50,115 nucleotides of DNA from Candidatus Altiarchaeota archaeon (GCA_043800255.1 JAZDNF010000012.1:1-50115), one strand, 5' to 3'; numbered from the stretch's first letter, positions 11,520 through 43,718 are shown. Translations and numbers: made by a program. The notes: generated by a model from the letters alone, not told the origin.

Positions 11520-11547
11520 ACGGCAGTGTGATGACGCGAACAACCAC
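11520..11547 (+). repeat. 28-bp exact direct copy of the 5' part of the C/D sRNA (11622-11649)
   Basis: acggcagtgtgatgacgcgaacaaccac occurs at both 11520 and 11622. Confidence 0.95.
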
Positions 11548-11550
11548 CTG

Positions 11551-11594
11551 CAACCTTTTTCTTTAAAAAGAAAAACGTTGACGAAAAAGAAACT
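11551..11594 (-). repeat. Palindromic dispersed element, copy 1
   Basis: Reverse complement agtttctttttcgtcaacgtttttctttttaaagaaaaaggttg; related to copies at 11687, 11814, 14523, 14701, 42597, 42668, 42848. Confidence 0.85.
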
Positions 11595-11596
11595 CT

Positions 11597-11608
11597 TAAA
11601 CTTATAAT
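11597..11608 (+). promoter_or_regulatory. Probable TATA box of the C/D sRNA
   Basis: taaacttataat about 15-25 nt upstream of the sRNA terminal stem. Confidence 0.45.
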
Positions 11609-11623
11609 ACGCAAATAACTAAC

Positions 11624-11683
11624 GGCAGTGTGATGACGCGAACAACCACTGACACATGATGACTGATGGGCGAGCTGACTGCC
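11624..11683 (+). ncRNA. Box C/D methylation-guide sRNA
   Basis: Terminal stem GGCAG/CTGCC; box C GTGATGA (11630-36), 12-nt guide, D' CTGA (11649-52), C' ATGATGA (11656-62), 12-nt guide, D CTGA (11675-78); canonical archaeal spacing. Confidence 0.92.
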
Positions 11684-11877
11684 ACGAACCCTTTTCTTTG
11701 GAAAAGAAAAGCGTTCACGGAAAAGAAATTGCAGTCAGTGCTGGTGAGCGAAGCGAAATCCAGCACATTTGATCAACCTTTGGAAAAGGTTGTGAGGTGA
11801 GCTGACTGCCACGAACCCTTTTCTTTGGAAAAGAAAAGCGTTCACGGAAAAGAAATTACAGTCGTGCTGGTGAGCGA
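11672..11877 (+). repeat. About 80-bp near-exact direct repeat (11672-11751 and 11799-11877) holding the sRNA 3' end and a palindromic element; short palindrome caacctttggaaaaggttg (11774-11792) lies between the copies
   Basis: Direct comparison: one substitution and a 1-nt indel. Confidence 0.92.
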
Positions 11878-11878
11878 G

Positions 11879-12757
11879 ATGAAAGAGGAGATTAACAGAG
11901 CGTTGGAGCATATGATGGAGACCAACAGCATACGGAAGGTCTTCTGGCACATGGATGAGAAAGTGGACAGACTGCGGTTCGGGATACGACAGGGGGATGA
12001 CGCAGTAGTGGTTGACAAAATGGTCGTGAACATGGAAGGCCCGTATCCTCTCAAGATAGGCAGGAAGGCAGGTCTGGTCCACACATGCAGCGACATCGTC
12101 ATCATGGGCGCTAAGCCGCTGTTCGCGTTGAACAGCATGCAGGTCGACTCCATCAGAGAAGCTAAGGAGGTTTCAGAGGACGTTAAAAAACAGAGCAACG
12201 GCTTGGATGTGCCGGTAATAGGCGGGAACACGCAGATGGAAAACGACCTGAAACCGTGCATATCTTTCACCGTGTTCGGCAGACTCCAAGGCAAGCCGAT
12301 ACCGGACGCAGGATGCGAAGCAGACGACAGGATACTGATGCTGGGCGACATCGTCGAAGGCTCAATCGGGGAGAGAGTCTACCGGGCCACGACAAAATTC
12401 AACACCTACCTTGAGATTTTGGAAAAGAAAATCATCGTGAATGCTTCAAAGGACGCCTCACGGGGCGGCTGGTTCGGAAACCTCGCTGAGATGCTCGTCA
12501 AAAGCAAAAAAGGCGTCAAGATCACAAGCATACCCTACCCCAGGTTCACAAGGTACATGGGCACTTACCTGATCAGCGTCCCCGCAAATGATGTTGACAA
12601 CATCATCTCAATCGCATCAAAAAACAAGTGCCCGGTGGTTGAGATAGGAACCATATTGAAGGAACCTAAGATGCTGATCGGGAGAAAAGTCGTCGTGTCC
12701 AAACAGAGAATGCAGCAGATGATACGACAATTCCCATTCAGAACAGGAAAGATTTAA
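11879..12757 (+). CDS. AIR synthase (PurM-like superfamily) related protein
   Basis: 'GDDAVV', 'SDIVIMGAKPL', 'VIGGNT', 'KDASRGG'; ATG at 11879 follows GGTGA, and the track's upstream extension lies in repeat DNA. Confidence 0.8.
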   Translation: MKEEINRALEHMMETNSIRKVFWHMDEKVDRLRFGIRQGDDAVVVDKMVVNMEGPYPLKIGRKAGLVHTCSDIVIMGAKPLFALNSMQVDSIREAKEVSEDVKKQSNGLDVPVIGGNTQMENDLKPCISFTVFGRLQGKPIPDAGCEADDRILMLGDIVEGSIGERVYRATTKFNTYLEILEKKIIVNASKDASRGGWFGNLAEMLVKSKKGVKITSIPYPRFTRYMGTYLISVPANDVDNIISIASKNKCPVVEIGTILKEPKMLIGRKVVVSKQRMQQMIRQFPFRTGKI

Positions 12758-12777
12758 CAGCAAACAACTTGCTTAAC

Positions 12778-13014
12778 TCAGTGAAATTCTTTATCGTATT
12801 CTCGCTTAAGCCACCACTGGTTTTGTCTGCCTACTTTTCGGTATCTTATCTTTCCTTCCGCTTGTAATTTGAATAGGTGTATTTGAGCGGTCTGCCAACT
12901 TATGTTTGCCACTCTTGCTATGTCCTCTGTTGTACTAGGCCATTCTAATGTCAGCATGTGTGACAGTATTTTTTCGTCTATCTCTTTGCCCCGGGGTTGT
13001 TTCACAGTAAACAA
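12778..13014 (-). CDS. Small winged helix-turn-helix protein
   Basis: 'STTEDIARVANISWQTAQIHLFKLQAEGKI..RKVGR..QWW' wHTH pattern; start uncertain. Confidence 0.8.
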   Translation of the reverse strand: MFTVKQPRGKEIDEKILSHMLTLEWPSTTEDIARVANISWQTAQIHLFKLQAEGKIRYRKVGRQNQWWLKREYDKEFH

Positions 13015-13116
13015 TTGCAGTCTTTACATATAAAGTTATCATACAAAGTTATGATATAACGTAATATATGTCTCACTTTTAAAGCTTAGCCATTCATATT
13101 TAATCAGGTAGTTTGG

Positions 13117-13782
13117 ATGAATTATCGAACATATCTAACACTAGTCTTCTCTCTTCTAGTTTTTTCTTCTGGATGCATTACAACACCAGAAAAGACCAAT
13201 GTCCTGTATGAATGTCCTAACGGCCAGCTTGTTGAAAACCGGAGTAAATGTCCGACAATTGGTGAAGAACCTAAACCTGTGACTACCATTAGGCAAACTA
13301 CGGCAGCAGCTACAACTACACCCACTACGGTTAAAGAGGTCGTCGTTAAGACCCCAAAAACTTACGAGATTGGAGACACCATAAGTGGCGGAAATCTGGC
13401 CGTTAAAGTTAACTCAGTGAGGAAAACGGATAAACTCACTACAACCATGGACTTAGGAGAGACGTATACATATGAGCAAGAACCCGAATCAGGATTTCAG
13501 TATTTAATAGTCGATATTAGCGTGGACAACATTGGCGACATAAGTGAAGCTATCAGCACTCTGATGCAAATGACGGTTCACGACGGGGAGGGATATACTT
13601 ACGACCAGGACATTATGACTGCGGGATTCCTAAGCAAATCATTTAAAGGCGGAGAGTTATCGCCGGGTATGAAAATGAGGGGGGACGTTGCATTTCAAGT
13701 ACCTAAGACCGCCACTGATTTACAGTTCATTTTCGATTATGAGTTCTTTGGCGTTGGTCAAGCGATAATCGATTTAGAGTAG
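13117..13782 (+). CDS. DUF4352-type Ig-like lipoprotein
   Basis: Lipobox 'FSSGC', Thr-rich linker, 'YEIGDT', 'GELSPG...RGDVAFQVP'. Confidence 0.8.
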   Translation: MNYRTYLTLVFSLLVFSSGCITTPEKTNVLYECPNGQLVENRSKCPTIGEEPKPVTTIRQTTAAATTTPTTVKEVVVKTPKTYEIGDTISGGNLAVKVNSVRKTDKLTTTMDLGETYTYEQEPESGFQYLIVDISVDNIGDISEAISTLMQMTVHDGEGYTYDQDIMTAGFLSKSFKGGELSPGMKMRGDVAFQVPKTATDLQFIFDYEFFGVGQAIIDLE

Positions 13783-13792
13783 GGAATAATTC

Positions 13793-14488
13793 ATGAGTTT
13801 AACAAAATCCACTAACGAAAAAGAGAGTGGGTTGAGCCTAGAGAAATTAATTGCTGTCATTATTTGCAGTTTTGTGTTAAGTTTAGGTCTTACGCTATTG
13901 TTAGTTTACATACACAATCTGCTGGCAATTGTTGGTTTTTTTATCGGGATAGTTGTGTTCACATATTGGTTATACCATTCCACTAGTGTAAAACGGATGA
14001 TTGGTAAGGGTTTGATAGTGCTCGCTATTGAATCATTCTCTCTCCCCATAGTTATGTTGATTTTCACAGTGATTTTTGTTTCAACAAAAACTGAGGGGGC
14101 GGCTGAGGGATTAGGAGCTGCGATCGGCGGTAGCATAGTCACGTTATTTGCAGTAGTTGTTGGTTTCTTTCTGGGAGTAATATTTTTGATTGTTGGTTAT
14201 TTCACCCTAAAAAGCAGTTCCAGCGAAACACAATCTACCCCCAAAAAAAGTTTAGATGCGGAATATGGATCAAAATCTGTCACCCCGGCTAAATCAACAA
14301 CACAACCCTCAGAAGAATTTACGAAAGGTACATTCTTCTGGCTTGTGATACTTGGTTCGTTATTATGGATTGTTATGCCCATAATAACACTCTACAAGTG
14401 GGTGAACCATAGTAAACACACGAGAATTTATGTGGCAGCAACAATCCTAAGCTTCTTCTTAATGCTCTTTTGGGCGATTATCCTCTAA
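13793..14488 (+). CDS. Hypothetical multi-pass membrane protein
   Basis: About six hydrophobic segments with a Ser/Thr/Lys linker. Confidence 0.7.
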   Translation: MSLTKSTNEKESGLSLEKLIAVIICSFVLSLGLTLLLVYIHNLLAIVGFFIGIVVFTYWLYHSTSVKRMIGKGLIVLAIESFSLPIVMLIFTVIFVSTKTEGAAEGLGAAIGGSIVTLFAVVVGFFLGVIFLIVGYFTLKSSSSETQSTPKKSLDAEYGSKSVTPAKSTTQPSEEFTKGTFFWLVILGSLLWIVMPIITLYKWVNHSKHTRIYVAATILSFFLMLFWAIIL

Positions 14489-14522
14489 CTTACTCGAACC
14501 CGCCCACTCAAGTATCCGTGAA

Positions 14523-14577
14523 ATTTCTTTCTTTTTCGTACACGTTTTTCTTTCTTTGGAAAAGAAAGAAAAAGGTG
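14523..14577 (+). repeat. Palindromic element abutting the tRNA-Phe 3' end; may double as a U-tract terminator
   Basis: atttctttctttttcgtacacgtttttctttctttggaaaagaaagaaaaaggtg. Confidence 0.85.
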
Positions 14578-14651
14578 TGCCGCTGGCGTGATTTGAACAC
14601 ACGACACCCAGGTCTTCAGCCTGGTGCTCTCCCAATCTGAGCTACAGCGGC
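14578..14651 (-). tRNA. tRNA-Phe (GAA), CCA not encoded
   Basis: Reverse complement GCCGCTGTAGCTCAGATTGGGAGAGCACCAGGCTGAAGACCTGGGTGTCGTGTGTTCAAATCACGCCAGCGGCA folds to a cloverleaf. Confidence 0.97.
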
Positions 14652-14700
14652 GAATATTAACAATTAATTCGCACTTAAGTAATGAGAGTATTAGGTTATA

Positions 14701-14810
14701 AGTTTTCTTTTCGTCAATGCAAACGAGACTTTGTCTCGTTGCGCACGAAGACCTTGGTCTTCGTTGCGTTTTCTTTTTTAAAAGAAAAGGTTGATGCTGA
14801 GCTACAGCGG
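14701..14810 (+). repeat. Palindromic element with two internal hairpins, followed by a 14-bp copy (14797-14810) of the tRNA-Phe 5' region (14637-14650)
   Basis: agttttcttttcgtcaa[..aacgagactttgtctcgtt..acgaagaccttggtcttcgt..]cgttttcttttttaaaagaaaaggttg atg ctgagctacagcgg. Confidence 0.85.
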
Positions 14811-14869
14811 TTTCGTGTAAGCGGGGGTGATGTCAGCGAGACTCTGTCTTGCGCTGACAGCCGCGGAGA

Positions 14870-15130
14870 TTAGTCAACAATCTCGAGTTCCGTGCCCAGC
14901 GCCTGCCCTGGGAGGCCCTTCTCGAATTTCACCAGAACCTGGCCTTTGCCGCCGTGGGTTTTCGAGACCTCGCCGTTTATCTTGTTGCCGCCTGGCGTCG
15001 TCCACACCGCCTTCTTCTTCATCAGCTTTTTCGAGTCCTCTTTCGTCTTAACGCCCTCAACATGGACTACGAGCTGGTTGGGTTTCTGCGTGTGCCTTCC
15101 TCCCCGGTAGTTTACAATCGTTCCCTTCAT
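14870..15130 (-). CDS. rpl35ae: 50S ribosomal protein L35Ae (eL33)
   Basis: 'IVNYRGGRHTQKPNQ', 'KTHGGKG', 'F..GLPGQALG'. Confidence 0.95.
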   Translation of the reverse strand: MKGTIVNYRGGRHTQKPNQLVVHVEGVKTKEDSKKLMKKKAVWTTPGGNKINGEVSKTHGGKGQVLVKFEKGLPGQALGTELEIVD

Positions 15131-15198
15131 AGTGCATTAATTATTTCAGTCAAGTATAATAAGCATTTATATTAGCGATTTCTTAATAGAATACCTCG

Positions 15199-15756
15199 AT
15201 GAAGGAGATAAGATTTCACGGACGGGGAGGCCAGGGTGCTGTGACCGCCGCGTATATATTGGCTTCGGCGGCGTTCTTGGACGGCAAATACACGCAGGCT
15301 TTCCCCAAATTCGGCGTTGAGAGGCGCGGCGCCCCTGTTGAGGCTTTCGCAAGGATTTCTGACAAATTCATACGGGAGAAATCGCAAGTATACCAACCAG
15401 ATTACATTGTGATACTGGATTCAACCCTGCTGGGGCCGAAGGAGTCGGCAGATAAGGGCATACTTTACGGCCTGAAGGAGGAAGGGACCATCATAATAAA
15501 CACGAACAAATCTGCTGAAGACCTCGGACTGGGAGGATACGATGTTAGGAGCGTTGACGTGTCACAACTCGCAATCGAGGTCCTTGGCAGGGACATAGTA
15601 AATACCGCGATGCTCGGGGCGTTCGCAGGATTCACCGGCGAGGTGAGCAAGGAATCGATACACGAAGGTATCAAGGAGCAGTTCAAGGGCAGCCTGGCTG
15701 AGAAGAACATAACACTGGTGGATAAGGTATATGAAAGAGCAAAAGGGAAAGGTTGA
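15199..15756 (+). CDS. porC: Pyruvate/2-oxoacid:ferredoxin oxidoreductase gamma subunit
   Basis: 'EIRFHGRGGQG', 'FGVERRGAPV', 'NTAMLGA'. Confidence 0.95.
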   Translation: MKEIRFHGRGGQGAVTAAYILASAAFLDGKYTQAFPKFGVERRGAPVEAFARISDKFIREKSQVYQPDYIVILDSTLLGPKESADKGILYGLKEEGTIIINTNKSAEDLGLGGYDVRSVDVSQLAIEVLGRDIVNTAMLGAFAGFTGEVSKESIHEGIKEQFKGSLAEKNITLVDKVYERAKGKG

Positions 15757-16054
15757 CTTCAATAAGCTAAAAAGCAGGCTGGGGACGGCGGAGATAACGT
15801 TTGGCGGAGTGCTCCCAAGCAACGGCTCAACCGCATTGAACAAGACAGGCAGCTGGAAGTCGATGCGGCCTGTCACAGACCACAGCAAGTGCATAGCATG
15901 CGGGATGTGCTGGAGCGTCTGCCCTGAGGGTTGTATCTACGTCAGGGAGGAGGACGGGAGATTCCAGTCGAACTACGACTACTGCAAGGGCTGCGGCATA
16001 TGCCCGACAGTCTGCCCGGTCAAGTGTATAACAATGGTTATTGAGGAGAAATGA
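15731..16054 (+). CDS. porD: Pyruvate/2-oxoacid:ferredoxin oxidoreductase delta subunit
   Basis: 'KTGSW', CxxCxxCxxxCP and 'YDYCKGCGIC...CP'; start uncertain. Confidence 0.95.
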   Translation: MKEQKGKVDFNKLKSRLGTAEITFGGVLPSNGSTALNKTGSWKSMRPVTDHSKCIACGMCWSVCPEGCIYVREEDGRFQSNYDYCKGCGICPTVCPVKCITMVIEEK

Positions 16055-17223
16055 AGACTGTAATAGAAGCATCACATGCTATTGCAGAGGCTGTGAAGCA
16101 GGCAAAGCCAGATGTGATAGCAGCCTATCCGATAACTCCTCAGACGCACATAGTCGAAAAGCTTTCGGAAATGGTTGCCGACGGGGATCTTGATTGCGAA
16201 TACATCAACGTTGAATCTGAGTTTAGCGCAATATCGGCATGCCTCGGAGCATCCGCGACAGGCACCAGGACATACACTTCGACATCATCGCAGGGTCTCG
16301 CGCTCATGCACGAGGTGCTGTTCATAGTCTCAGGCATGAGACTGCCGGTCTGCATCTCCTTGGTCAACAGGGCGCTGTCAGCTCCAATCAACATCTGGAA
16401 CGACCACCAGGACAGCATATCAGCCAGAGACGCGGGTTGGATTCAGATGTACGTCGAAACCGCGCAGGAAGCATATGATATGAGCCTTATGCAGTTCAAG
16501 ATATCGGAAGATCAGAATGTCATGCTGCCGTCGATGGTGTGCATGGACGGTTTCACCCTCTCGCACGTGTACGAGCCGGTGAACTTTTACGAACAGAAGC
16601 ATGTTGATGAATTCATACCAGAATACCAGCCGTACCATGCTGTTTTGGACCCGCAGCAGCCTATCACACAGGGACCAATAGGATTCCCGTCACATTACAT
16701 GGAATTTAGAGGCGCGCAAGAGAGAGCCCTAAAAGAGTCCTTAAAGGTGATTGGAAAGGTTTACAAGGAATTCTCAACTAAATTCCCAATGCAGATAGCA
16801 GACTCGCGCCCGAAAAAGTACGGACACGTGGAAGAATACAGGACAGATGATGCGGACATCGTCTTAGTTGCCATGGGATCGGTCTGCGGGACCATAAAAG
16901 TCGTCATAGACAGACTGAGGGAGAAGGGAGAGAAGGTAGGGCTTCTGAAGCTGATAACTTACCGGCCGTTCCCAGCCGACGTGCTCAGGGAAGCCTTGAA
17001 GGACGCCAAAAAGGTTGCGGTTGTCGAGAAGGCCTTTTCCGCGGGGTTCGGCGGCGTCCTCTACAGTGAGCTGGCTTCGGTCCTGTATGAGAACGAGAGG
17101 CAACCAGAGCTGAGGAATTTTATAGTAGGCTTAGGGGGGAGGGACGTCACACTAGAGCACGTGAAAAAGATAGTTGAGAAGACGAAAAAAGGCGAAGGAA
17201 ACAGGGAGGAGTGGATGTTCTAA
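16051..17223 (+). CDS. porA: Pyruvate/2-oxoacid:ferredoxin oxidoreductase alpha subunit
   Basis: 'AYPITPQT', 'VESEFSA', 'TSSQGLALM', 'GLGGRD'. Confidence 0.96.
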   Translation: MKTVIEASHAIAEAVKQAKPDVIAAYPITPQTHIVEKLSEMVADGDLDCEYINVESEFSAISACLGASATGTRTYTSTSSQGLALMHEVLFIVSGMRLPVCISLVNRALSAPINIWNDHQDSISARDAGWIQMYVETAQEAYDMSLMQFKISEDQNVMLPSMVCMDGFTLSHVYEPVNFYEQKHVDEFIPEYQPYHAVLDPQQPITQGPIGFPSHYMEFRGAQERALKESLKVIGKVYKEFSTKFPMQIADSRPKKYGHVEEYRTDDADIVLVAMGSVCGTIKVVIDRLREKGEKVGLLKLITYRPFPADVLREALKDAKKVAVVEKAFSAGFGGVLYSELASVLYENERQPELRNFIVGLGGRDVTLEHVKKIVEKTKKGEGNREEWMF

Positions 17224-17224
17224 C

Positions 17225-18136
17225 ATGGCTATCGCAGGACTACCGGAGGAGGAATACTTTTCAAAAGGCCACAGAGCCTGCGCAGGATGCGGGGCGGCGA
17301 TAGCGATGAGGCTGCTCACAAAAGCGGCCGGTCCTGACACCGTACTGGTCGAGTCAACGGGCTGTATGGAGGTTATCAGCACACCCTACCCTGAAACCGC
17401 ATGGAAGCTGCCGTGGATACACGGCGCCTTCGAGAACAACTCGTCAATAGGCACCGGCGTCGAGGCAGCCCTGAAAAGGCTCGGCAGAAAAGCTAATGTT
17501 GTCGTCTTCGGAGGAGACGGCGCAACATACGACATAGGATTCGGTGCCATATCAGGCATGTTCGAGAGAGGAAACAACATAACCTACGTGTGCTACGACA
17601 ACGAAGCCTACATGAACACAGGGATACAGAGGAGCAGCTCAACGCCGTTCGGCGCGTCGACAACAACCTCACCCTCAGGAAAGAAAAGCATAGGGAAGCC
17701 CCAGTGGAAGAAGGACATCATACACATCATCGCAGCACACGGTTCACCTTATGTCGCAACAGCAAGCATAGCATACACGCAGGACGTGTACAAGAAGATA
17801 AAGAAGGCCATTGAGACTGAAGGCCCGACCTTCGTCAACGTCTACTGCGGCTGCGTTCCAGGATGGAAGTACCAGCCTGAGAAGACAATCGAACTGTCAA
17901 AACTGGGGGTCGAGACCGGAGTAACGCCAATATTTGAGATAACAGGGGGCAAACACAAGCTGAATATGCCTCGGAATGTCGACAAACTGAAGCCTGTTGA
18001 GGACTACCTTAAGCCTCAGGGAAGGTTCAGACACCTCTTCATTCCCGAGAAGGACGAGAAAAACCTCGCTTTTATACAGGAAAAGGTTAAGGATAACCTC
18101 AAACTCCTGCTGAAGTACGAGGAGTGCGACTTATAA
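17225..18136 (+). CDS. porB: Pyruvate/2-oxoacid:ferredoxin oxidoreductase beta subunit
   Basis: 'GHRACAGCG', TPP motif 'GGDG...DIG', 'YDNEAYMNTGIQRS'; ATG at 17225. Confidence 0.96.
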   Translation: MAIAGLPEEEYFSKGHRACAGCGAAIAMRLLTKAAGPDTVLVESTGCMEVISTPYPETAWKLPWIHGAFENNSSIGTGVEAALKRLGRKANVVVFGGDGATYDIGFGAISGMFERGNNITYVCYDNEAYMNTGIQRSSSTPFGASTTTSPSGKKSIGKPQWKKDIIHIIAAHGSPYVATASIAYTQDVYKKIKKAIETEGPTFVNVYCGCVPGWKYQPEKTIELSKLGVETGVTPIFEITGGKHKLNMPRNVDKLKPVEDYLKPQGRFRHLFIPEKDEKNLAFIQEKVKDNLKLLLKYEECDL

Positions 18137-18226
18137 AAGGGTAGGCTCCGACTTATCTTTTTAAATATGTGTTCATAATTTTACAATAGGGGGTTAATTA
18201 ACGATAAAATTTGAGGTTGAGGGGTT

Positions 18227-19363
18227 ATGGATTCTATAGTTCATGATGCAATGAAACAGGTCGAATGGCAGGGTAGCCCGCGCTCGACTGAGAAGAAGAA
18301 GTTCTCTGACACCGACGAGGAGCTGAAGAGGATAGTAGACGGCATCGCCACGAGCATAAAAATCATTGGAGCAGGCGGGGCCGGAAGCAACACGATCGAG
18401 AGGCTGCAGGACATGGGCGTCCATGGCGGGGAGATAATAGCTGTGAACACAGACGCCCTCGACTTGTTGAACACGCCAGCTAACACGAAGATTCTCATAG
18501 GCACCAGCATAACCGGCGGAATCGGAGCAGGAAACGACCCAGAGGTTGGAGAGCAGTGCGCGGAAGTTGATGTTGAGAAGATATCCAACGCCCTGAGCGG
18601 GGCAGACATGGTGTTCATAACATGCGGCCTAGGAGGAGGGACGGGAACAGGGTCGGCGCCGGTCATAGCTGAAGTCGCAAAAGACCTTCAGGCTCTTACT
18701 GTTGGCGTCGTGACACTTCCGTTCTCTGTTGAAGGCAGGGTGAGGGCTGCCAACGCCCTGAAAGGCCTGAAAAAACTGCGAAAATACGCTGACACCGTCA
18801 TAGTCATACCAAACGACAGGCTGCTTGACATCGTGCCAAACCTGCCGTTGAACGCGGCATTCAAGGTGGCTGATGAGCTGCTGGCGAACGCAGTAAAAGG
18901 CATAACAGAGATGGTAACAAAACCTGGCCTGGTCAACCTGGACTTCGCCGACGTTCGTACCATACTAAAGGATGGCGGAAACGCGATGATAGGCCTTGGC
19001 TCATCAACAAAGGAGACCGCCATGGGAGAGCGCTCTAAGGAGTCTGTCGAAAAAGCCATACAGTCACCGCTTCTTGACACTGACATAAGCGGCGCGACCG
19101 GAGCTCTCATAAACATAATAGGCAGCAGGGACATGACACTCGAAGAGGCTGAGGAGATCGTCAGGATAGTGGCTGAGAGGATAGACCCCAACGCGGAGAT
19201 AATATGGGGTGCCCAGATTGACGAATCCTTGGACAGGAACATGATCCAGACACTGCTAATACTCTCTGGAGTCAGAATCCCCGGATATGAGGAGGACTTA
19301 GAAGAAAAAGTAGAGAAGGAATCCAGCGAACGACATTTTGACATGGGATTGAAGAGCATATAA
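18227..19363 (+). CDS. ftsZ: Cell division protein FtsZ
   Basis: 'GAGGAGSN', 'GLGGGTGTG', 'NLDFADV'; conserved ftsZ-secE-spt5 context. Confidence 0.98.
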   Translation: MDSIVHDAMKQVEWQGSPRSTEKKKFSDTDEELKRIVDGIATSIKIIGAGGAGSNTIERLQDMGVHGGEIIAVNTDALDLLNTPANTKILIGTSITGGIGAGNDPEVGEQCAEVDVEKISNALSGADMVFITCGLGGGTGTGSAPVIAEVAKDLQALTVGVVTLPFSVEGRVRAANALKGLKKLRKYADTVIVIPNDRLLDIVPNLPLNAAFKVADELLANAVKGITEMVTKPGLVNLDFADVRTILKDGGNAMIGLGSSTKETAMGERSKESVEKAIQSPLLDTDISGATGALINIIGSRDMTLEEAEEIVRIVAERIDPNAEIIWGAQIDESLDRNMIQTLLILSGVRIPGYEEDLEEKVEKESSERHFDMGLKSI

Positions 19364-19364
19364 A

Positions 19365-19544
19365 ATGGGGCTACTCCAGAAGATTGACAGAGCCTACTCA
19401 GAGACTCGTAGGATACTGAGGCTGACGAGGAAGCCGAGGAAGTCCGAATTCAACGAGACTGCCAAGATAACTGGGTTGGGCATAATAATAATAGGGGTAA
19501 TAGGTTTCCTAATATTTTTTATAGCATTGTTGATTAGAAGATAA
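19365..19544 (+). CDS. secE: Protein translocase subunit SecE (Sec61 gamma)
   Basis: Hand translation MGLLQKIDRAYSETRRILRLTRKPRKSEFNETAKITGLGIIIIGVIGFLIFFIALLIRR (59 aa); below the ORF-track cutoff. Confidence 0.95.
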   Translation: MGLLQKIDRAYSETRRILRLTRKPRKSEFNETAKITGLGIIIIGVIGFLIFFIALLIRR

Positions 19545-19548
19545 GAAC

Positions 19549-20536: not shown

Positions 20537-20565
20537 TTTTTATAGTGGTTTTGCATATAATATAA

Positions 20566-20606
20566 GACCCGTTTCACTATCTGCCTAAAGCAGATAGGAG
20601 GATGTC
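20566..20606 (+). promoter_or_regulatory. Hairpin leader overlapping the rpl1 Shine-Dalgarno; candidate L1 autoregulatory site
   Basis: ctatctgc-ctaaa-gcagatag stem directly joined to GGAGG; TATA-like tttttata at about 20537. Confidence 0.55.
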
Positions 20607-22371: not shown

Positions 22372-22401
22372 CCTGTTAAAATATACAGGTAATAAATTAT
22401 A

Positions 22402-31166: not shown

Positions 31167-31199
31167 GTAATATAATCTCGTTTATAAACAATTAATAGG

Positions 31200-31568: not shown

Positions 31569-31569
31569 A

Positions 31570-31896: not shown

Positions 31897-31919
31897 CTGT
31901 GAACATTAGGTAGTAGGGT

Positions 31920-33239: not shown

Positions 33240-33282
33240 TTTATATTAAACAATTGGAGTGAATAAATAAGAGGTGTAAGCG

Positions 33283-34518: not shown

Positions 34519-34522
34519 GAAA

Positions 34523-36594: not shown

Positions 36595-37882
36595 CATTCT
36601 CCAGCAGCAGCTTTCTTATGTCTCCGACAAAGAATATTGAGCCTGAGAAGACTAAAATGTCATCTTCTCCGGAGAGGCTTCTCGCCGTCTGTATGGACTC
36701 TTTGGCAGAAGCTGCGGCAGTGCACTTCGCTCCCATGCGCTCTATCTTATCGCGTAACACGTTAGGGGAGGCGGCCTGCGGATGGTTTGACCTGGCTACT
36801 ATAACATGCTTTGCGACAGGCAGCAATTGGGAGAGTATGCCATCAATGTCCTTATAGTCTGATACGCCGATTGAGAGTATGAACTTCCTGTCTCCGAAGT
36901 GCTGTCGCAGTGACTCCTTCAGCGTCCTTGCCCCATCAGGGTTGTGGGCGCAGTCTAATACAGTCTTAGGTCTAATGTCCAAGACTTCGAACCTGCCAGG
37001 CCAGACCGCGGAGACAAGCCCGGACCGTATCGCATCCTCAGGCACATCAACTCCACCAGCATTCAGGACATCCAATGCTGTGACAGCAGCGGCGGCGTTT
37101 TTTATCTGATGCACGCCCATGAAGCGTATGGCAATATTCTCATGTAATCTGATTCCATCAACATCGAAGACCTGCTTCAAGTGGCTGATTTTCTTAATTT
37201 TATAGCTGACATCCTTCCCGACAACATGCAATTTTGAGCTCCTCTGACATGTTCTTTCAAAAAGGGAGAGTGTCTTAGGATCCTCCTCGGAGGTTACGAC
37301 AGGCACCCCCTCTTTTATTATCCCAGCCTTCTCTCGTGCGATGTCAAGAACGGAATCGCCGAGCACCTCCCTATGGTCCATCTGGACATTGGTTATTACC
37401 GAAACCAGGGGAGTCAATACGTTAGTGGAATCAAGCCTCCCGCCGAGGCCGACCTCAACCACCGCAAGGTCAACGCCATTATCTGCGAAATACTTGAAGG
37501 CTATTGCCGTGATGACCTCGAAAAATGAAGGCTCGCCTACCGACTTATCATCCTGCATCCCGTTGATTAGGGGTATAGTCTCATCAAGCATCCTGGCAAG
37601 AACATCAGGGGGTATCTGGCTGCCGTCAGCCTGTATCCTCTCCGTGAATTCCATCAGATGAGGGGAGGTGTACATTCCGACACTGTGACCAGCCTCCATC
37701 AGGGAGGAGTATATCATCGCGCAAACCGAACCCTTCCCGTTGGTGCCGCCCACATGCACTGACTTAAATCGCATATGGGGGTTGCCCATCAGCTCCAAGA
37801 GATGCGCCGTATGCGACAGACGGAGTTTTATGCCGCTTTTCCTCAACGTGTACAAGTAGTCTAAAGCGCCGCCATAGTCCAT
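36587..37882 (-). CDS. folC: Folylpolyglutamate/dihydrofolate synthase
   Basis: 'VGGTNGKGS', 'YTSPHL', 'EVGLGGRLD.TN', 'WPGRFE', 'DCAHN'. Confidence 0.97.
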   Translation of the reverse strand: MDYGGALDYLYTLRKSGIKLRLSHTAHLLELMGNPHMRFKSVHVGGTNGKGSVCAMIYSSLMEAGHSVGMYTSPHLMEFTERIQADGSQIPPDVLARMLDETIPLINGMQDDKSVGEPSFFEVITAIAFKYFADNGVDLAVVEVGLGGRLDSTNVLTPLVSVITNVQMDHREVLGDSVLDIAREKAGIIKEGVPVVTSEEDPKTLSLFERTCQRSSKLHVVGKDVSYKIKKISHLKQVFDVDGIRLHENIAIRFMGVHQIKNAAAAVTALDVLNAGGVDVPEDAIRSGLVSAVWPGRFEVLDIRPKTVLDCAHNPDGARTLKESLRQHFGDRKFILSIGVSDYKDIDGILSQLLPVAKHVIVARSNHPQAASPNVLRDKIERMGAKCTAAASAKESIQTARSLSGEDDILVFSGSIFFVGDIRKLLLENDG

Positions 37883-37915
37883 GCCAGTTCATAATAAGAA
37901 CGTTGGCTATAAAAG

Positions 37916-39454
37916 CTAGTGTTTGAAGCAGCGGACGCCTGTGAAAACCATCGCCATCCTGTGCTCGTTTACAGCATCTATGACTTCAGCGTCCCGTATG
38001 GACCCGCCAGGCTGTATTACAGCCGTCACTCCTCCTTTAGCAGCCTCGTCAATGCCGTCCCTGAACGGGAAGAACGCATCAGACGCCATCATAGAACCCT
38101 CAGCCTTAGAGCCAGCCTTCTCGACCGCTATCTTCACAGCGTCAACCCTGCTCATCTGGCCTGCCCCGACCCCGACAGTATGGGTGTCCTTTGAGAGCAC
38201 TATCGAGTTCGAAGTGACGTGGCAGTTCACCTTCCACGCGAACAGCAGGGATCTTATCTCATCCTCCGACGGCTTCCTGCTGCTGACAACCTTAAGGCCC
38301 TTGGAGGAGACTGCCGCCTTTCCGGATGTCTGAACCAGCAGGCCGCTTCTCACCCTCTTCAAGTCAAGCATGCCGGGATTTGACCGCTCTATCGGAACCT
38401 CCAGCAGCCGGATGTTCTTCCTCTCCCTCAGCTTTTGCAATGCATCCTCATCGAAGCCCGGAGCCACGATAGCCTCTATGAAGTGGCCTTTCATCCTATC
38501 AACCGTCTTAAGGTCGACTTTTCTGTTGAATGAGACTATGCAGCCATAGGCTGATATTGGGTCGGAATCGTGTGCGAGAGAATAGGCTTCATCAAGGGAA
38601 TCCGAAGACGCAACCCCGCAGGGGTTCATGTGTTTCAGGACAGTTGCGGTGGGGTCGCTGAAGTCAGCCGCGACTTCAAGCGCGTCATTTATGTCCAGTA
38701 TGTTGTTATATGACGGCTGCTTTCCGTGGAGTTGTCTTGCGTTTGGAATCGAACTCCCAGCTGCCATGAGATCACTGTAGAATGCAGCAGACTGGTAGGG
38801 ATTCTCCCCATACCTCAAGTCGTACAGCTTCTTGAACTTTAATGTGAGGATGCCGGGAAAGATGCTAGCACTCTTGGATAGGTAGGCGTATATGGCAGCA
38901 TCATAACTTGATGAGTAGTCGAACGCCCGTACAGCGAGATTTCTTAGGGTTTCATGCTCGAGAGAGCCTCCGTTCTTCTCAAGCTCAGACGCTATCATCC
39001 CATAGGAGCCTGGATCCACGACAACAGCAACGTCCTTGAAGTTCTTGGCTGCCGCCCTTATCAGGGTTGAGCCGCCGATGTCAATCTGCTCGAGAGCGTC
39101 CTCCAAAGTTGCGCCCTTCTTCCGTATCGCCTCGGCGAAGGGGTAGAGGTTGACGACGACCATGTCAATAGGCTTTATCCCATGTTTGGAGATTTCGGCC
39201 ATGTGTCTTTTGTTTTCCCTTAAAGCCAGCAGGCCGCCGTGTATTTTCGGGTGCAGCGTCTTGACCCTGCCGTCGAGTATCTCCTCAAACCCTGTGAGAG
39301 AGGAGACCTCCTCAACCGTGACTCCGTTATCTTTCAGAAATTTGGCAGTGCCGCCGGTGGAGACAATCTGCACGCCAAGTTTGGCAAGGGTCTTAGAGAA
39401 GTCTGGCAAACGGGTCTTGTCCGAACAGCTTAGTAGGGCGCGCTTAACCTCCAT
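37916..39454 (-). CDS. purH: Bifunctional AICAR transformylase/IMP cyclohydrolase
   Basis: 'RALLS.SDK', 'STGGT', 'GRVKTLHP', 'LRYGENP.Q', 'KH.NPCG', 'ASDAFFPF', 'QPGGS.RD'. Confidence 0.97.
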   Translation of the reverse strand: MEVKRALLSCSDKTRLPDFSKTLAKLGVQIVSTGGTAKFLKDNGVTVEEVSSLTGFEEILDGRVKTLHPKIHGGLLALRENKRHMAEISKHGIKPIDMVVVNLYPFAEAIRKKGATLEDALEQIDIGGSTLIRAAAKNFKDVAVVVDPGSYGMIASELEKNGGSLEHETLRNLAVRAFDYSSSYDAAIYAYLSKSASIFPGILTLKFKKLYDLRYGENPYQSAAFYSDLMAAGSSIPNARQLHGKQPSYNNILDINDALEVAADFSDPTATVLKHMNPCGVASSDSLDEAYSLAHDSDPISAYGCIVSFNRKVDLKTVDRMKGHFIEAIVAPGFDEDALQKLRERKNIRLLEVPIERSNPGMLDLKRVRSGLLVQTSGKAAVSSKGLKVVSSRKPSEDEIRSLLFAWKVNCHVTSNSIVLSKDTHTVGVGAGQMSRVDAVKIAVEKAGSKAEGSMMASDAFFPFRDGIDEAAKGGVTAVIQPGGSIRDAEVIDAVNEHRMAMVFTGVRCFKH

Positions 39455-39502
39455 GAGAAAAAGCACCGTTTAAAGACTAGGACGGGGATGCTTAAAAGTG
39501 GT

Positions 39503-40198
39503 TCAGATGACGCCGAACAGTTTCTGCTTCGGCAGCAGTTCTATGCCCTGGCTTATCATGAAAGGCACGATCTTCGTCACATGGTTTGTGCCCCTCATCT
39601 TCAGTATTTCTATGGCCCTGTGCCTCGCGCTCTCCCTCCGCAGGTTGTACAACACGATGACGCCGTCCACTATGAATTCTATGACTCCGTGCCTCGAGTA
39701 GGCGTTGATGTTCTGCTCAGCCTCGGCTATCATCAGGGTCGTGCACTTGTGGTTCCTCAACCATCCTATCAGGCTCAGGATGTGCTTCCTGCGCTCGAAC
39801 TCGTCCTGTATCATCATCTCGATGCTGCTGATGGAGTCTATGATGACCCTCTGGGCGCTGATGTCGCTTATGCCGTCGACGATCTCGCCGTAGTCCTCCT
39901 TCACGACGTGCATGACATCCTTCGGGTCTATCCTGAGAATTTCGAGTTTCTTGTCCTTGATCAGCTTGTCAAGGTCCCAGCCGTGCCTCTTCATGTTCTC
40001 CTTCATAGGCTCGACGTCCTCCTCGAAGGTTATGTAGATGCCAGGCTCGTTTTGCTTTGCGCCTTCGACAAGGTACTGCATGCAGAAGGTAGTCTTCCCG
40101 CTGCCGCACCCGCCAGTAATAAGAATGTTGCTGTGCTTCCTGAAACCGCCCTCAATCATCTCATCGAGGCCCGGAATCCCAGAAGGTATCCTCTCCAT
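39503..40198 (-). CDS. KaiC/RAD55-like single-domain ATPase
   Basis: 'SGIPGLDEMIEGG', Walker A 'GGCGSGKT', 'YITFEE', 'IIDSIS', 'KMRGT.H'. Confidence 0.92.
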   Translation of the reverse strand: MERIPSGIPGLDEMIEGGFRKHSNILITGGCGSGKTTFCMQYLVEGAKQNEPGIYITFEEDVEPMKENMKRHGWDLDKLIKDKKLEILRIDPKDVMHVVKEDYGEIVDGISDISAQRVIIDSISSIEMMIQDEFERRKHILSLIGWLRNHKCTTLMIAEAEQNINAYSRHGVIEFIVDGVIVLYNLRRESARHRAIEILKMRGTNHVTKIVPFMISQGIELLPKQKLFGVI

Positions 40199-40236
40199 CA
40201 AATCACCCAAAACACTGTTTCATATTGAGCGAACAG

Positions 40237-41079
40237 TTATAAATACTGAAATTCTGCAGCAGAGACGGTATTCTGCAGCAGCATCGCAATCGTCAATGGG
40301 CCAACGCCGCCAGGAACCGGCGTTATCGCCTTCACCTTATGCTGCACTCCGCCGAAGTCGACGTCTCCGACGACCTTGCCGGCTTTCTTGCTTATGCCAG
40401 CATCTATAACGACCGCACCCTTTTGTACCATGCTGGCCGTTATTAGATTGGGTTTGCCAACCGCGGTGACAAGTATGTCAGCCTCGCGCGTATGGCTTCC
40501 GAGATTTCTTGTATGGACGTGGCACACTTCAACGGTCGCGTTGCGGTTTAGAAGCATCAGCGCCAGAGGCTTGCCGACGACAATAGAATGGTTCACTATG
40601 ACAACATTCTTGCCTTCCAGATTGGTTGTTTTCTCCAGCAGGTAGATTATGCCCTTCGACGTAGCTGGAGCGAAACTCTCATCAGAATACGCAAGCCGCC
40701 CTATGTTCGCAGGGTTGAAACCATCCACATCCTTTTCAGGCGAAATGCCTGCCAGAATCTCATAGACGTCGAACTTTTTCGGCAGGGGAAGCTGAACAAG
40801 TATCCCATTCACCTCGGGGCGTGAATTCAATCTGCCAATCAATTTCAGAACATCGCCCTGTTTAGCAGCCGAGGAAAGATTAAAATGCTCGGAGTAGATA
40901 CCAACCTCCCCGCAGGCGTTCTGCTTCAGTTTCAGATATAATTTGGAGGCAGAATCAGAGCCTACCGATACTGTGGCAAGACCTGGCCTGAAGCCCAGCG
41001 CAGTCAAACGTTTAACACGCGATCTAACCCTGCTCTTTATCTTCGAGGCATAAGCCGCGCCGTCGATAATCCTTTTCAT
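40237..41079 (-). CDS. folD: Methylene-THF dehydrogenase/cyclohydrolase
   Basis: 'GILVQLPLP', 'KDVDG', 'S.VVGKPLA', 'TPVPGGVGP'. Confidence 0.97.
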
Positions 41080-42320
41080 TCTAGGGGATAAAGCGGGAAC
41101 TTCGACGTCATATCCAACACCTGCTTACCCACCTTCTTCTTAACTCCAATATCATCAACGTTTTTCAGGACGTCAGATATCATGTCAGCGATTTTGACCA
41201 TCTCAGGCTCCCGCATACCTCTAGTCGTAACACAGGGAGTCCCGATCCTGATCCCAGAGGTCACGAACGGACTCTCAGTCTCGAACGGGATGGTGTTCTT
41301 GTTCAAGGTTATGTTAGCCTCCTCAAGCGCGTCCTTAGCAACCTTGCCGGTCAGCCCGTTAACCTTCACATTAACCAACATCAGGTGATTATCAGTCCCG
41401 CCGGAGACTAACGTGTATCTTTCCTCCAAAAGCCTTTTCGCAACAGCTTTGGAGTTTTTGACAATCTGCTCCTGATACTTCCTCCACTCGGGGGCTTCAG
41501 CTTCCTTAAAGCAGACCGCCTTGCCCGCGATTGAGTTCATGAAAGGTCCGCCCTGAGTACCTGGAAAGACGGACTTGTCAACTAACTTAGCATGTTCTGC
41601 TCTGCACAATATCATCGCCCCCCGCGGGCCTCTCAACGTCTTATGGGTTGTTGTTGTTACAAAATCGGCATACCCTATAGGAGAGGGATGAACGCCGGCT
41701 GCGATTAAACCTGCGATATGCGCGATGTCAGCCATCAGGTAAGCACCGACCTCATCGGCAACCTCTCTGAACCCCTTAAAGTCAATAATCCGGGGATAGG
41801 CGCTCGCACCGCACACGATAATCTTCGGCTTCGACTTCTTAGCTATGGCGGAAACCTCGGAAAAGTCTATCCGCTCATCATCCCTGCTGACGCCGTAAGA
41901 GACGGAATTGAAAATCTTCCCGGAGAAGCTAACCTGGGCGCCATGCGTCAGATGCCCGCCGGAATTCAAGTCCATGCCAAGTATGGTATCACCCGGCTTC
42001 AGAACGGCAAAATAGACCGCCATGTTCGCCTGGCTACCGGAATGCGGCTGAACGTTCGCATGCTCAGCCTTGAAAAGCCTCTTAGCCCTCTCAATGGCCA
42101 GAACCTCGGCTTCGTCAACGAACTCACAGCCCCCATAGTATCTCTTGCCAGGATAGCCTTCGGCGTATTTGTTAGTCAGAACCGAGGCCACAGCCTCGCT
42201 CACAGCGAAGCTCACATGGTTCTCAGAAGCTATAAGCTGCAGCTTACTGTTCTGCCGCACAGTCTCCTTCCTGACGATATCCGCAACCTCAGGATCAACA
42301 TCAACCAACGCAGCCAACAA
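41076..42320 (-). CDS. glyA: Serine hydroxymethyltransferase
   Basis: 'LIASEN', '[16 protein letters not shown]', 'GGHLTHG', '[13 protein letters not shown]'; TTG start. Confidence 0.97.
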
Positions 42321-42426
42321 ACCCTTCCTCGAGATTTAAACCACCTGCAATGACTTAGATATTAGCATAAAGTATAAAAGAATATACTATTTATCTAATG
42401 ATTCTATACTATTATCCACGATTTTT

Positions 42427-42533
42427 GGGCCCGTAGCCTAGCCTGGATAGGGCACCGGACTTCTAAGAATCCCCAAGAAAAAGAATGGGGCGGAGAAATC
42501 CGGAGATCGTGGGTTCGAATCCCACCGGGTCCG
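42427..42533 (+). tRNA. tRNA-Arg (TCT) with 32-nt intron (42466-42497) at position 37/38
   Basis: Acceptor GGGCCCG/CGGGTCC, anticodon stem CCGGA/TCCGG, TTCGAAT loop; BHB core helix CUUC/GGAG with two 3-nt bulges. Confidence 0.95.
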
Positions 42534-42596
42534 TTCGGCTGGAAATCCAGCCGGCAGATTGTGCTATCTTCGGCTTCTACCTCGATAGCACGTACT

Positions 42597-42661
42597 GTTT
42601 CTTTTTCGTGCACGTTTTTCTTTCCCAAAGAAAAAGGTGCTTCACAATCCCACCGGGTCCG
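42597..42661 (+). repeat. Palindromic element followed by a 16-bp copy (42646-42661) of the tRNA-Arg 3' end (42518-42533)
   Basis: gtttctttttcgtgcacgtttttctttcccaaagaaaaaggtgcttcac aatcccaccgggtccg. Confidence 0.88.
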
Positions 42662-42667
42662 CTTCCG

Positions 42668-42764
42668 CCCTTTTTCTTTAGACGCGAGGGAACTTCGTTC
42701 CCTGCGCCCAAGGAGCTTCGCTCCTTTGGGAAAAGAAAAAGTGCAGGTTGCCCAGAAAGAAAAC
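42668..42764 (-). repeat. Opposite-orientation palindromic element with two mini-hairpins in its loop
   Basis: ccctttttcttt..gggaacttcgttccc..ggagcttcgctcc..aaagaaaaagtg..gaaagaaaac. Confidence 0.75.
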
Positions 42765-42847
42765 ATTTGGGCGGCATTCGGCGGCTCGGCCGCCTCAGCC
42801 ACTTATTGCATCCTCCTCAGCTTTCTGCCTAAATGTCAAGTATTGCC

Positions 42848-42887
42848 TCTTTTCTTGTGTGTTTTTCTTTTCCAAAGAAAAACGTGC
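42848..42887 (+). repeat. Degenerate copy of the palindromic element
   Basis: tcttttcttgtgtgtttttcttttccaaagaaaaacgtgc. Confidence 0.65.
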
Positions 42888-42938
42888 TTAACAATTTTGT
42901 ACGGCGGATATTTTATTAGAACTTTTCATACTATTACC

Positions 42939-43673
42939 ATGGGGAACCACATAGAGCGAGATATGCCCTCACAGAAATCAAATGATTCTGTCTTTCCAAT
43001 ATTAAAGAATATACCATGTTTTGGGTCCAAATCTTGGTTGGGAGAGGGCCCACTCACGAAACAGATGAACAACATCAAGTCCATAAGCAATAAGCTCCAA
43101 CGCGATGGCTTGGAGAGCCTGTATGAGATTAGAGATTGGATATCGACAAACTTAGAAGATTATGGTGGTCCAAAAAAGAGGGCTAAGATTAAGGAAATTG
43201 TGGGTAAGGAGGTAACAGATTTGCTAAGAAAACGAGGTGCTGCGGACATAATCAATGACGGCTTTACAACTGGTTGTGGTGACGTCGCTATAGTATTTGC
43301 TACATTGGCAAGGAGTAAGGGCATGCCAGTCCAGTTTATTGAAGCGGTCCAAGAGGATTGTTTAAGGGAATTGAGTTTGGGTAGCAGGCATCAGTCGATG
43401 AAGGGGCATGTTTTCCTTAGGGTTAAAATCGGTGGAAAGTGGGTTCTTCTCGACCCTATGCAAAAATCCGCCGATGGCAAACGCCCAAATATTGACTTTT
43501 CAGATAAATGGTGTAACGAGTTTAAACCAGGGGGGATAATCAATGAACCCGAATCGAAGCAGGGAAGGTACATAATATACGGTATTGGCCTTGACAGTCA
43601 TGATATCGGGCTTCGTAGTTTTGAGGATATGAGGGAGAAATTCTTAGCATTCAGTAGAAGAATCTATCCATAG
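42939..43673 (+). CDS. Transglutaminase-like (Cys-His-Asp) domain protein
   Basis: 'GCGDVAIVFATLARSKGMP', 'GHVFL', 'WVLLDP'; ATG at 42939 because the track's extension is repeat DNA. Confidence 0.85.
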   Translation: MGNHIERDMPSQKSNDSVFPILKNIPCFGSKSWLGEGPLTKQMNNIKSISNKLQRDGLESLYEIRDWISTNLEDYGGPKKRAKIKEIVGKEVTDLLRKRGAADIINDGFTTGCGDVAIVFATLARSKGMPVQFIEAVQEDCLRELSLGSRHQSMKGHVFLRVKIGGKWVLLDPMQKSADGKRPNIDFSDKWCNEFKPGGIINEPESKQGRYIIYGIGLDSHDIGLRSFEDMREKFLAFSRRIYP

Positions 43674-43691
43674 AATATCGCCGGGTTCGTG

Positions 43692-43718
43692 CAACCTTTT
43701 TAGGAAAACGGTTAATCA
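43692..43718 (-). repeat. Short palindrome related to the 11769-11792 mini-element
   Basis: caacctttttaggaaaacggttaatca versus caaccttttccaaaggttgatca (reverse complement of the 11.77 kb copy). Confidence 0.5.

Follow-up and report, generated by a model that had tools for sequence, protein, structure and literature searches.

A putative intrastrand-triplex element with one fixed end adjoins truncated gene copies in an Altiarchaeota genome

Introduction

Intrastrand triplex repeats, described as BoxC, PIT and TM-ECO (Holder et al., 2015; PMC4666352), are short, intergenic and without a gene of their own, and consist of a hairpin that shares its purine tract with a mirror third arm. Here, we describe an element of this layout in a 50,115-nt stretch of DNA (the window), which is contig C13 of a 1.75-Mb, 93% complete genome of Candidatus Altiarchaeota archaeon (GCA_043800255.1; JAZDNF010000012.1:1-50115), and report that truncated copies of RNA and protein genes adjoin one end of the element, the foot of its stem. 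By structure, the element would belong to the intrastrand-triplex class, corresponding in the scheme of that paper to class IV on the pyrimidine strand and class II on the purine strand. Unlike TM-ECO, which is bacterial and G/C-rich, the element is A/T-rich and archaeal, with a covarying tail containing a G.G mismatch, an association with transfer RNA (tRNA) introns, and duplication joints; with its A/T-rich tracts, it is not a BoxC/TM-ECO repeat proper (G/C-rich, class II). The main text of the triplex paper contains neither "tRNA" nor "duplicat".

The REP/BIME elements with TnpA-REP (RAYT), and IS200/IS605 (PMC3333891, available text), resemble the element as non-autonomous hairpins with composite arrays, a presumed processing of single-stranded DNA (ssDNA) and capture of neighbours. 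The element differs from them in its third mirror arm and its homology anchor, in the lack of a constant dinucleotide at the joint, and in that no flanked Y1 gene was found. The SRM/NTS repeats of the Ssn nucleases (PMC11893778) are likewise polar hairpin repeats with a cut a few bases outside, and involve ssDNA in transformation; Ssn is described for bacteria, and "archae" occurs 0 times in the available text.

One homologous anchor, one non-homologous joint and foreign DNA beside a conserved gene would be features that the element has in common with homology-facilitated illegitimate recombination. In the known process, the joints lie at short microhomologies and resident DNA is generally lost. 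The process is reportedly the subject of work by de Vries and Wackernagel in 2002, Meier and Wackernagel in 2003 and Prudhomme et al. in 2002. At the element, by comparison, the foot of the repeat's stem sets the joint, an orphan gene end is left, and the repeat would be propagated.

Among archaea, a 5' tRNA fragment of Caldiarchaeum lies upstream of the intact gene, with a 1.8-kb recombinase-encoding element between them (Sugahara et al., 2012; PMC3293823, available text); 5' fragments also lie upstream of intact genes here, over 60-300 bp and with no gene between. Related introns in different tRNAs, as found here, are known from intron transposition in Thermoproteales, cited in a preprint on Asgard tRNA introns (bioRxiv 10.64898/2026.10.13.758758); the preprint states that the arrival of archaeal tRNA introns is open, and its available text does not mention Altiarchaeota, DPANN or triplexes. 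No description of the element family was found in the literature searched, which was mostly without subscription papers or bioRxiv supplements.

Architecture of the element

On the pyrimidine strand, to which the coordinates of element copies refer, the element consists of a tract Y1, a loop of 8-10 nt, a tract Y2 that mirrors Y1, a variable loop that may house extra hairpins, a purine tract R complementary to Y2, and a tail whose back-pairing spans a G.G mismatch. The alignment comprised 210 distinct copies, from 247 loci and this genome (designated G000; L-numbers denote outside loci and G-numbers genomes). The three free positions of the tail after the mismatch were paired in 205, 208 and 207 of the 210 copies and the next position in 68, and because the pairing stops there, we place the end of the element 3 nt past the GG. 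The last base of Y1, the first base of Y2 and the last base of R were T/T/A in 105 copies and C/C/G in 104, with one discordant copy (the search pattern permitted eight combinations), and the lengths of the hairpin arms and the mirror third tract agreed. Such three-way covariation, present in 209/210 copies, is what an intrastrand triplex would require, and triplex formation by the element is predicted on this basis. Folding tools return only the hairpin part, for which six window copies gave folding z values of -3.4 to -5.2, and no Rfam family matches the element. A first-pass annotation of the window had termed it palindromic; the related hairpin copies were confirmed, but the element is no simple palindrome, being a hairpin plus a mirror tract, asymmetric, with only one fixed end and no defined second one.

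Joints at the stem foot

The ten related copies of the first-pass annotation were all located, confirming that the family is real. Together with three RNA genes, including a C/D-box-like small RNA (sRNA) gene, and their truncated duplicates, they are arranged in the window as follows.

11520..11550, + strand: truncated 5' copy of the C/D sRNA (28 nt identical, one extra base, two further matching bases)
11551-11592, - strand: element copy 1 (mirror tract, CGT-NN-ACG loop, hairpin, GG tail); its stem foot adjoins the sRNA 5' fragment
11626-11680, + strand: C/D-box-like sRNA gene with C, D', C' and D boxes, conserved throughout the order
11687-11728, - strand: element copy 2, a C/C/G variant, at the sRNA 3' end
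11768-11792, + strand: element copy 3, mini form in opposite orientation; its stem foot adjoins the sRNA 3' fragment
11793..11857, + strand: second sRNA 3' end, with element copy 4 (11814-11855, - strand)
14524-14578, + strand: element copy 5; its final tail base is the discriminator position of tRNA-Phe
14578-14651, - strand: tRNA-Phe(GAA), confirmed
14703-14793, + strand: element copy 6, carrying a 51-nt inner double hairpin (14718-14768)
14794..14810, - strand: truncated 5' copy of tRNA-Phe (positions 2-15, one extra base, two further matching bases)
42427-42533, + strand: tRNA-Arg(TCT) with a 32-nt canonical intron, which is not the element
42536..42597, + strand: unrelated second hairpin module between tRNA-Arg and element copy 7 (3 copies in this genome)
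42598-42640, + strand: element copy 7; its stem foot adjoins the tRNA-Arg 3' fragment
42641..42661, + strand: truncated 3' copy of tRNA-Arg (16 nt identical, preceded by T-loop bases with one change and one extra base)
42668-42763, - strand: element copy 8, composite, facing the natural 3' end of the tRNA-Arg fragment
42849-42887, - strand: element copy 9, degenerate
43691-43713, - strand: element copy 10, degenerate mini form, 1.2 kb from tRNA-Arg where two transglutaminase-like genes converge

All three RNA genes were confirmed. The sRNA gene matches Rfam sR2 with E=3e-5 and 31.8 bits, below the gathering score of 42, and similar sequence was recovered at orthologous loci across the order. 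The earlier statement that all copies lie at or near these genes is too strong for copies 9 and 10, which are 0.3 kb and 1.2 kb from tRNA-Arg. All four reported duplicates of RNA-gene sequence are present: 11520-11547 equals 11622-11649, 14797-14810 equals 14637-14650, 42646-42661 equals 42518-42533, and 11796-11818 equals 11669-11691 with one mismatch, the last within a 59-nt exact repeat (11672-11730 and 11799-11857). Inverted pairs of the element face each other at 11768/11814 and 42598/42668, and a near-identical twin of copy 8 stands behind the 5S rRNA gene on contig C16.

Throughout the alignment, a duplicate was detected on the GG side of 57/210 copies, two of these being self-matches (L044, L068). 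The automated duplicate starts clustered from -1 to +6 relative to the element end, with 19 at -1/0; matches on the non-GG side were scattered over 0-56 nt. The duplicates were 9-85 nt long, and the target bases at the joints varied. With a broader detector (79 rows), many joints were flush with the stem foot. Seven non-tandem rows start at +3 and were classed by eye as one natural tRNA end and six fragment joints, three of them in the window; in all six, the linker opens with two bases that continue the gene sequence, followed at its third position by one extra base, which is G in four of the joints, a pattern with a chance of about 6e-8, computed by hand for equal base use. The joint of the tRNA-Arg 3' fragment recurs in three outside loci, with the extra base at about +5 in the window, L106 and L248, and flush without it in L489.

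Gene homology begins directly at the stem foot, with one inserted base in some cases. The offsets of 6, 6, 6 and 8 nt given by the first-pass annotation follow this one rule, because each comprises the 3-nt element tail and target-matching bases broken by one extra base. Its constant polarity and register at the AAAAGG end were borne out; a fixed spacing of 6 nt was replaced by the stem-foot rule with an optional extra base, and a restriction to non-coding RNA (ncRNA) genes was rejected in view of joints in coding genes. Specific homing to tRNA and sRNA ends did not hold up either, as the same joint occurs at the 5' ends of ahcY, tyrA, gatB, gatE and ribH, and the cut in the target varies (ahcY codons 8, 23, 23 and 25; tRNA 5' pieces of 12-34 nt). 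The register belongs to the element, not to the RNA, and the target is joined at varying positions. Tandem units at single loci (L007, L281, L362) would stem from successive rounds.

Duplicated gene ends and a model of one-ended integration

About 29 tRNA genes were recovered in the genome, one doubtful call (C8:195233) being excluded. A truncated copy on the matching side is carried by 13/29 (10 have one of the 5' end and 5 one of the 3' end), compared with one on the wrong side, which is a neighbouring tRNA (C5 tRNA-Gly). Independent orphans with other cut points were present in 9/28 orthologous loci of the sRNA, 5/20 of tRNA-Phe, 11/29 of tRNA-Arg and 3/41 of ahcY, with the chance matches L386, L387, L393, L410 and L424 omitted; because orphans occupy a minority of the loci, most orthologous sites are empty. 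The upstream regions of fragment and intact gene are unrelated, and the sRNA 5' fragment at 11520..11550 is preceded by an AT-rich upstream region of its own.

Ten coding fragments are in frame and stop-free: five of ahcY, two of a gene that we take to be tyrA, and those presumed, partly from their translations, to be of gatE, gatB and ribH. Fragment and intact start differ at codon positions 1/2/3 in 15/10/48 cases (48/73 at the third position; p=1.5e-8), with 35 of 168 codons differing synonymously and 23 non-synonymously, a codon count that excludes L303 (no coding pair; subtracted by hand) and L024 (N gap). Because the differences are mostly at third positions and the fragments are in frame and stop-free, the coding copies resemble the alleles of two lineages. 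A local copy left to decay would not be expected to give such a bias, and the proposal that the duplicates were copied from 100-160 bp earlier on the same strand is at odds with coding copies that differ like orthologous alleles. In G017, the ahcY fragment is nearer the congener G019 (43/62) than the intact start is (37/62).

We lean towards the view that one-ended integration, anchored by homology and with its joint at the stem foot, is the way in which the element spreads. Donor DNA from another lineage, consisting of the element, a promoter or leader and the start of a conserved gene, or of the mirror arrangement at a gene 3' end, would pair with the resident gene, and the anchored side would be resolved by ordinary homologous recombination. 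The free end, set at the foot of the element stem, would be joined into the resident gene, whose start (or end) would be left as a truncated orphan. Conserved genes (tRNAs, the sRNA, 5S, ahcY, gatB/E) would serve as landing pads, being anchors common to lineages, and selection would spare only those products in which one gene stays complete. Such products would be orphan ends, flanks and joints at tRNA position 37; at this position, the element would form the beginning of a spliceable intron. Transfer between cells, a single-stranded intermediate and the identity of the incoming copy are presumed in this model. It appears the simplest, because it accounts together for a single fixed end, targets that are conserved but joined at varying positions, leaders of foreign type and copies that resemble alleles. 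With the joint set by a structured repeat, such integration would work like homology-facilitated illegitimate recombination, which the geometry and the allele-like divergence would fit, with mixed polarity.

Several observations weigh against this model. In G000, the match to a genome of another family is closer for the ahcY fragment (53/62) than for the intact start (48/62), which makes the polarity mixed, and a whole-protein ahcY tree keeps element-bearing genes with their kin (G017 with G019, 100/99); because of this tree, the replaced tracts would have to be short or the donors close. Two of the ten coding pairs (L260, L281) are nearly identical, as local duplication would also give, and the sites are not independent (related genomes; L260/L355). 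No intermediate was seen and no donor identified, the model does not account for the single extra base, and "fragment" and "natural end" are classes assigned by eye. In addition, the element is not required at every orphan, since L004 and L081 have no recognisable element at the joint and many others lie by other hairpin families.

If the model is right, promoters and starts of core genes are swapped between lineages, and the spread of triplex-type repeats, whose mobility the papers seen leave unexplained, gains a mechanism; in the coding-gene scars, divergence is countable and points to allele replacement. A more specific proposition, that the element is selfish DNA with neither a gene nor a dedicated transposase, whose folded single-strand cap fixes the free end of transferred DNA at conserved genes, is tentative and less likely than not. 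If true, each recombination between lineages at a neighbouring conserved gene would install the cap together with a new leader, and such a cap element would half-home across archaeal phyla via tRNAs and core genes, and feed tRNA intron gain or replacement.

Search for a mobilising enzyme and other hairpin families

The first-pass annotation had invoked a REP/IS200-type HUH enzyme acting in trans and had seen no mobilising gene in the window, where housekeeping genes and, in agreement, no nuclease or integrase were found among the 48 open reading frames (ORFs) scanned. In the genome, Y1_Tnp, GIY-YIG and RVT_1 each gave 0 matches, and so did the Y2_Tnp profile, whose positive control was also silent. 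Y1 genes are present in 17/49 genomes of the order; of their 57 matches, 30 loci were inspected and the element brackets 0 of these, and likewise 0/10 from five other genomes, a result limited by incomplete metagenome-assembled genomes (MAGs). The element flanks 0/30 GIY-YIG loci of the order (30 of 45 matches, among them 11 top-scoring loci whose open frames are short) and 0/2 more. DUF559 (PF04480) gave weak partial matches in 8/49 genomes and 1/5 others, with no element beside the 8 loci examined from other genomes; the sole match in this genome, a 155-aa protein that is presumably Vsr-like, lies far from any element copy. Three generic element matches, 0.5-1.3 kb away, turned up around 80 nuclease loci (67 in the order, 13 in five element-rich genomes), and no locus had the element on both sides. 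Pfam scans near elements (84/201 ORFs; 69/137 plus 16 rescans) returned housekeeping genes, two integrases and one LAGLIDADG-like ORF, and 17 ORFs with an element copy on each side were housekeeping genes or spurious frames. With incomplete genomes and part of the matches inspected, a mobilising enzyme was not found rather than shown to be absent.

Known families were compared on the same evidence. The element shares abundant extragenic hairpins, some in inverted pairs (36 copies), with REP/REPIN-RAYT systems, and a RAYT gene flanked by the repeats was found neither in the genome nor at the Y1 loci above. An IS200/IS605 derivative was rejected on the varying target bases, the 9-85 nt duplicates, the one defined end and the lack of a fixed tetra- or pentanucleotide; Ssn/SRM membership on the lack of a small GIY-YIG gene flanked by the repeat among the loci inspected; and a DUF559 gene between inverted triplex repeats on the weak partial matches, without a neighbouring element at the loci examined. 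A classical miniature inverted-repeat transposable element (MITE) does not fit an asymmetric element whose duplicates are variable in length and diverged. The distinction from integrase att sites, drawn in the first annotation, stands: the inserts measure 60-300 bp without an ORF, no integrase is among the 48 window ORFs scanned, and integrases lie beside only 2 outside loci. A small GIY-YIG gene at L179 (G022:C116) has a different palindromic repeat upstream, which is Ssn-like and unrelated to the element.

An HUH (Y1/RAYT-like) or similar trans-acting enzyme that nicks at a fixed offset from the hairpin, homes to tRNA and sRNA ends and copies locally would explain the constant polarity and register at the GG end. 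TnpA-REP is described as cutting and recombining away from its hairpin and capturing flanks (PMC3333891), SsnA cuts a few bases beside its repeat (PMC11893778), and Y1 genes do occur in the order. Nevertheless, with no Y1 or GIY-YIG gene found in the 93% complete genome, none of 80 nuclease loci (0/67 + 0/13) bracketed, coding genes affected, cut points varying and copies allele-like, unlike target-site duplications, such an enzyme is an unlikely explanation.

Besides the element, four or more unrelated modules of hairpin or pseudoknot-like type are bordered by orphans, while other orphans have no recognisable module at their joint. The duplication process is wider than this element. Within the model of one-ended integration, a dedicated trans-acting ssDNA nuclease and a host exonuclease or repair process stopped by the structure would have about even chances, and the many hairpin families slightly favour host nucleases stopped by the fold. 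The same families, together with the negative enzyme search and RNA-gene orphans that are mostly identical to the gene, could also speak for passive instability, in which a hairpin or triplex stalls replication, template switching makes local partial duplications, and the bias to RNA genes reflects high transcription and selection; intrastrand triplex repeats have been linked to bacterial genomic instability (PMC4666352, available text). Since a third-position bias without frameshifts, unrelated upstream regions and the same element across phyla would be unexpected, we regard this explanation, too, as improbable.

An apparent H-type pseudoknot with covarying arms (L381, L392, L299, L318, L483 and C8 near 133330) adjoins truncated 3' copies of sRNA, 5S rRNA and tRNA, which are flush at the module end. 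A third hairpin family precedes truncated tRNA 3' copies (C16 32900-33150; L007, L267, L362, L488, L493, L498), sometimes with the same extra base in the T-loop.

Distribution and orientation

Enrichment at ncRNA genes was confirmed genome-wide: 33/36 copies have a tRNA, this sRNA or a 5S gene no farther than 300 nt away, compared with 10% of non-ORF DNA (p=5e-30; the 36 copies omit window copies 3, 6, 8 and 10). Outside this distance are three copies: window copy 9 (327 nt), one C5 copy and one in the start of ahcY. The C5 copy at 7732-7774 has no recognised RNA gene or duplicate near it, and Rfam was blank. A generic detector gave 29 matches at a score of at least 12, versus 4 on the reversed genome.

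The strict pattern was present in 29/49 genomes of the order and in 0/12 from two further families of its class. Across species genomes, a scan yielded at least 114 loci, and among the matches listed, 80/80 titles were archaeal, naming Altiarchaeota, Micrarchaeota, Iainarchaeota, Aenigmatarchaeota, Nanoarchaeia, Methanophagales, Methanosarcinales and Methanomicrobiales; among these matches, the element spans DPANN-type phyla, Altiarchaeota and Halobacteriota. At least 57/210 copies adjoin a tRNA exon (control 0). Of 22 loci grouped by title as Halobacteriota, one adjoins a tRNA and nine come after a stop codon, and because Halobacteriota-titled loci so rarely adjoin a tRNA, the preference for RNA genes is lineage-dependent; homing to RNA genes, as first proposed, does not describe these loci. 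The full pattern had 0 matches in viral contigs, the loose pattern matched 42 loci (25 distinct) there, 0 of them with hairpin and tail, and plasmids and phages gave no element match.

A host cis-acting signal, such as a U-rich terminator or RNA-processing aid kept by selection, with duplications as ordinary recombination scars, would be compatible with the U-tract at the start of the RNA strand in the usual orientation, with the stop codon within 8 nt before the element in 29/210 copies, and with the usual orientation of 49/57 tRNA-adjacent copies. Against this, 8/57 tRNA-adjacent copies are reversed, most orthologous loci lack the element, the element sits inside introns and before promoters, and the flush joint is unexplained. 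As an account of the whole family, such a signal is quite improbable; as a secondary use, it may be compatible with one-ended integration.

In L068, L069, L027, L082, L065 and L086, some of them titled Iainarchaeum, a reversed element points its GG end toward tRNA 5' starts and 3' exons. At the ANME-1-type loci L014, L023, L033, L053, L055, L072 and L077, the element tail overlaps or follows stop codons and is terminator-like.

tRNA introns

The element begins 17/25 tRNA introns of the genome, starting flush with position 37 in 8, at +1 in 5, at +2 in 3 and at +3 in 1; in two thirds of one genome's introns, the element thus comes first, 0-3 nt from the splice site. All 25 introns have 3-4 of 4 central bulge-helix-bulge pairs at the canonical position 37/38, and a splicing endonuclease gene is present. 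The intron of the window tRNA-Arg was found in 6/29 orthologous loci examined. If one-ended integration is right, it offers a testable DNA route for tRNA intron gain.

An RNA route, in which element RNA is ligated to processed RNA ends, such as a splice site or a tRNA 3' end, and reverse-transcribed into the genome, would agree with the start of intron copies 0-3 nt after position 37, with the many flank copies that start at tRNA 3' ends, and with the splicing endonuclease gene. It is very unlikely, given no RVT_1 match in the genome, arbitrary cut points in tRNAs and mRNAs, and inserts that include promoter-like DNA upstream of the transcript.

Intron placement at 37/38 corrects the ARAGORN labels of several intron-containing tRNAs to Gln(TTG), Lys(TTT), Asn(GTT), Ile(GAT), Met(CAT) and Ser(TGA).

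Strain-level variation

Short-read contigs of three groundwater runs (one study; related strains with some differences), one contig per case, were compared with the window over 10500-15800. The sRNA 5' joint was spanned by two independent contigs (X1 record 3, X3 record 15) and the tRNA-Phe 5' joint by one (X2 record 12), each with few differences. An X1 contig of a related strain lacked 11742-11878, which is the sRNA 3' duplicate with two element copies (137 nt skipped, 11 other letters), and an X2 contig of a related strain lacked the 51-nt inner module of copy 6. These spanning contigs and missing modules argue against an artefact and for recent change. Along with the constant register and the RNA-gene enrichment, the first-pass description of a non-autonomous and recently active family was upheld. 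An assembly artefact around hairpins is scarcely credible: this is a short-read MAG, hairpins and repeats break assemblies, and one outside case (L024) ends in an N gap, but the copies are diverged, the splice motifs are intact, and independent assemblies span two window joints.

Other features of the window

Behind tRNA-Arg, two convergent transglutaminase-like ORFs occupy 42960-43673 and 43778-44506, the first with a same-orientation element copy on each side and possibly cargo. Between its stop and element copy 10, 13 nt at 43677-43689 resemble a piece of a tRNA T-stem/T-loop, for which no parent tRNA was found. The region 12577-14523, from the AIRS-domain gene to tRNA-Phe (DUF4352 and a hypothetical ORF), was for the most part without coverage by the groundwater contigs, one of which, from a related strain, joins 12577 to 14578 with unassigned sequence between them, and may be a variable island behind tRNA-Phe.

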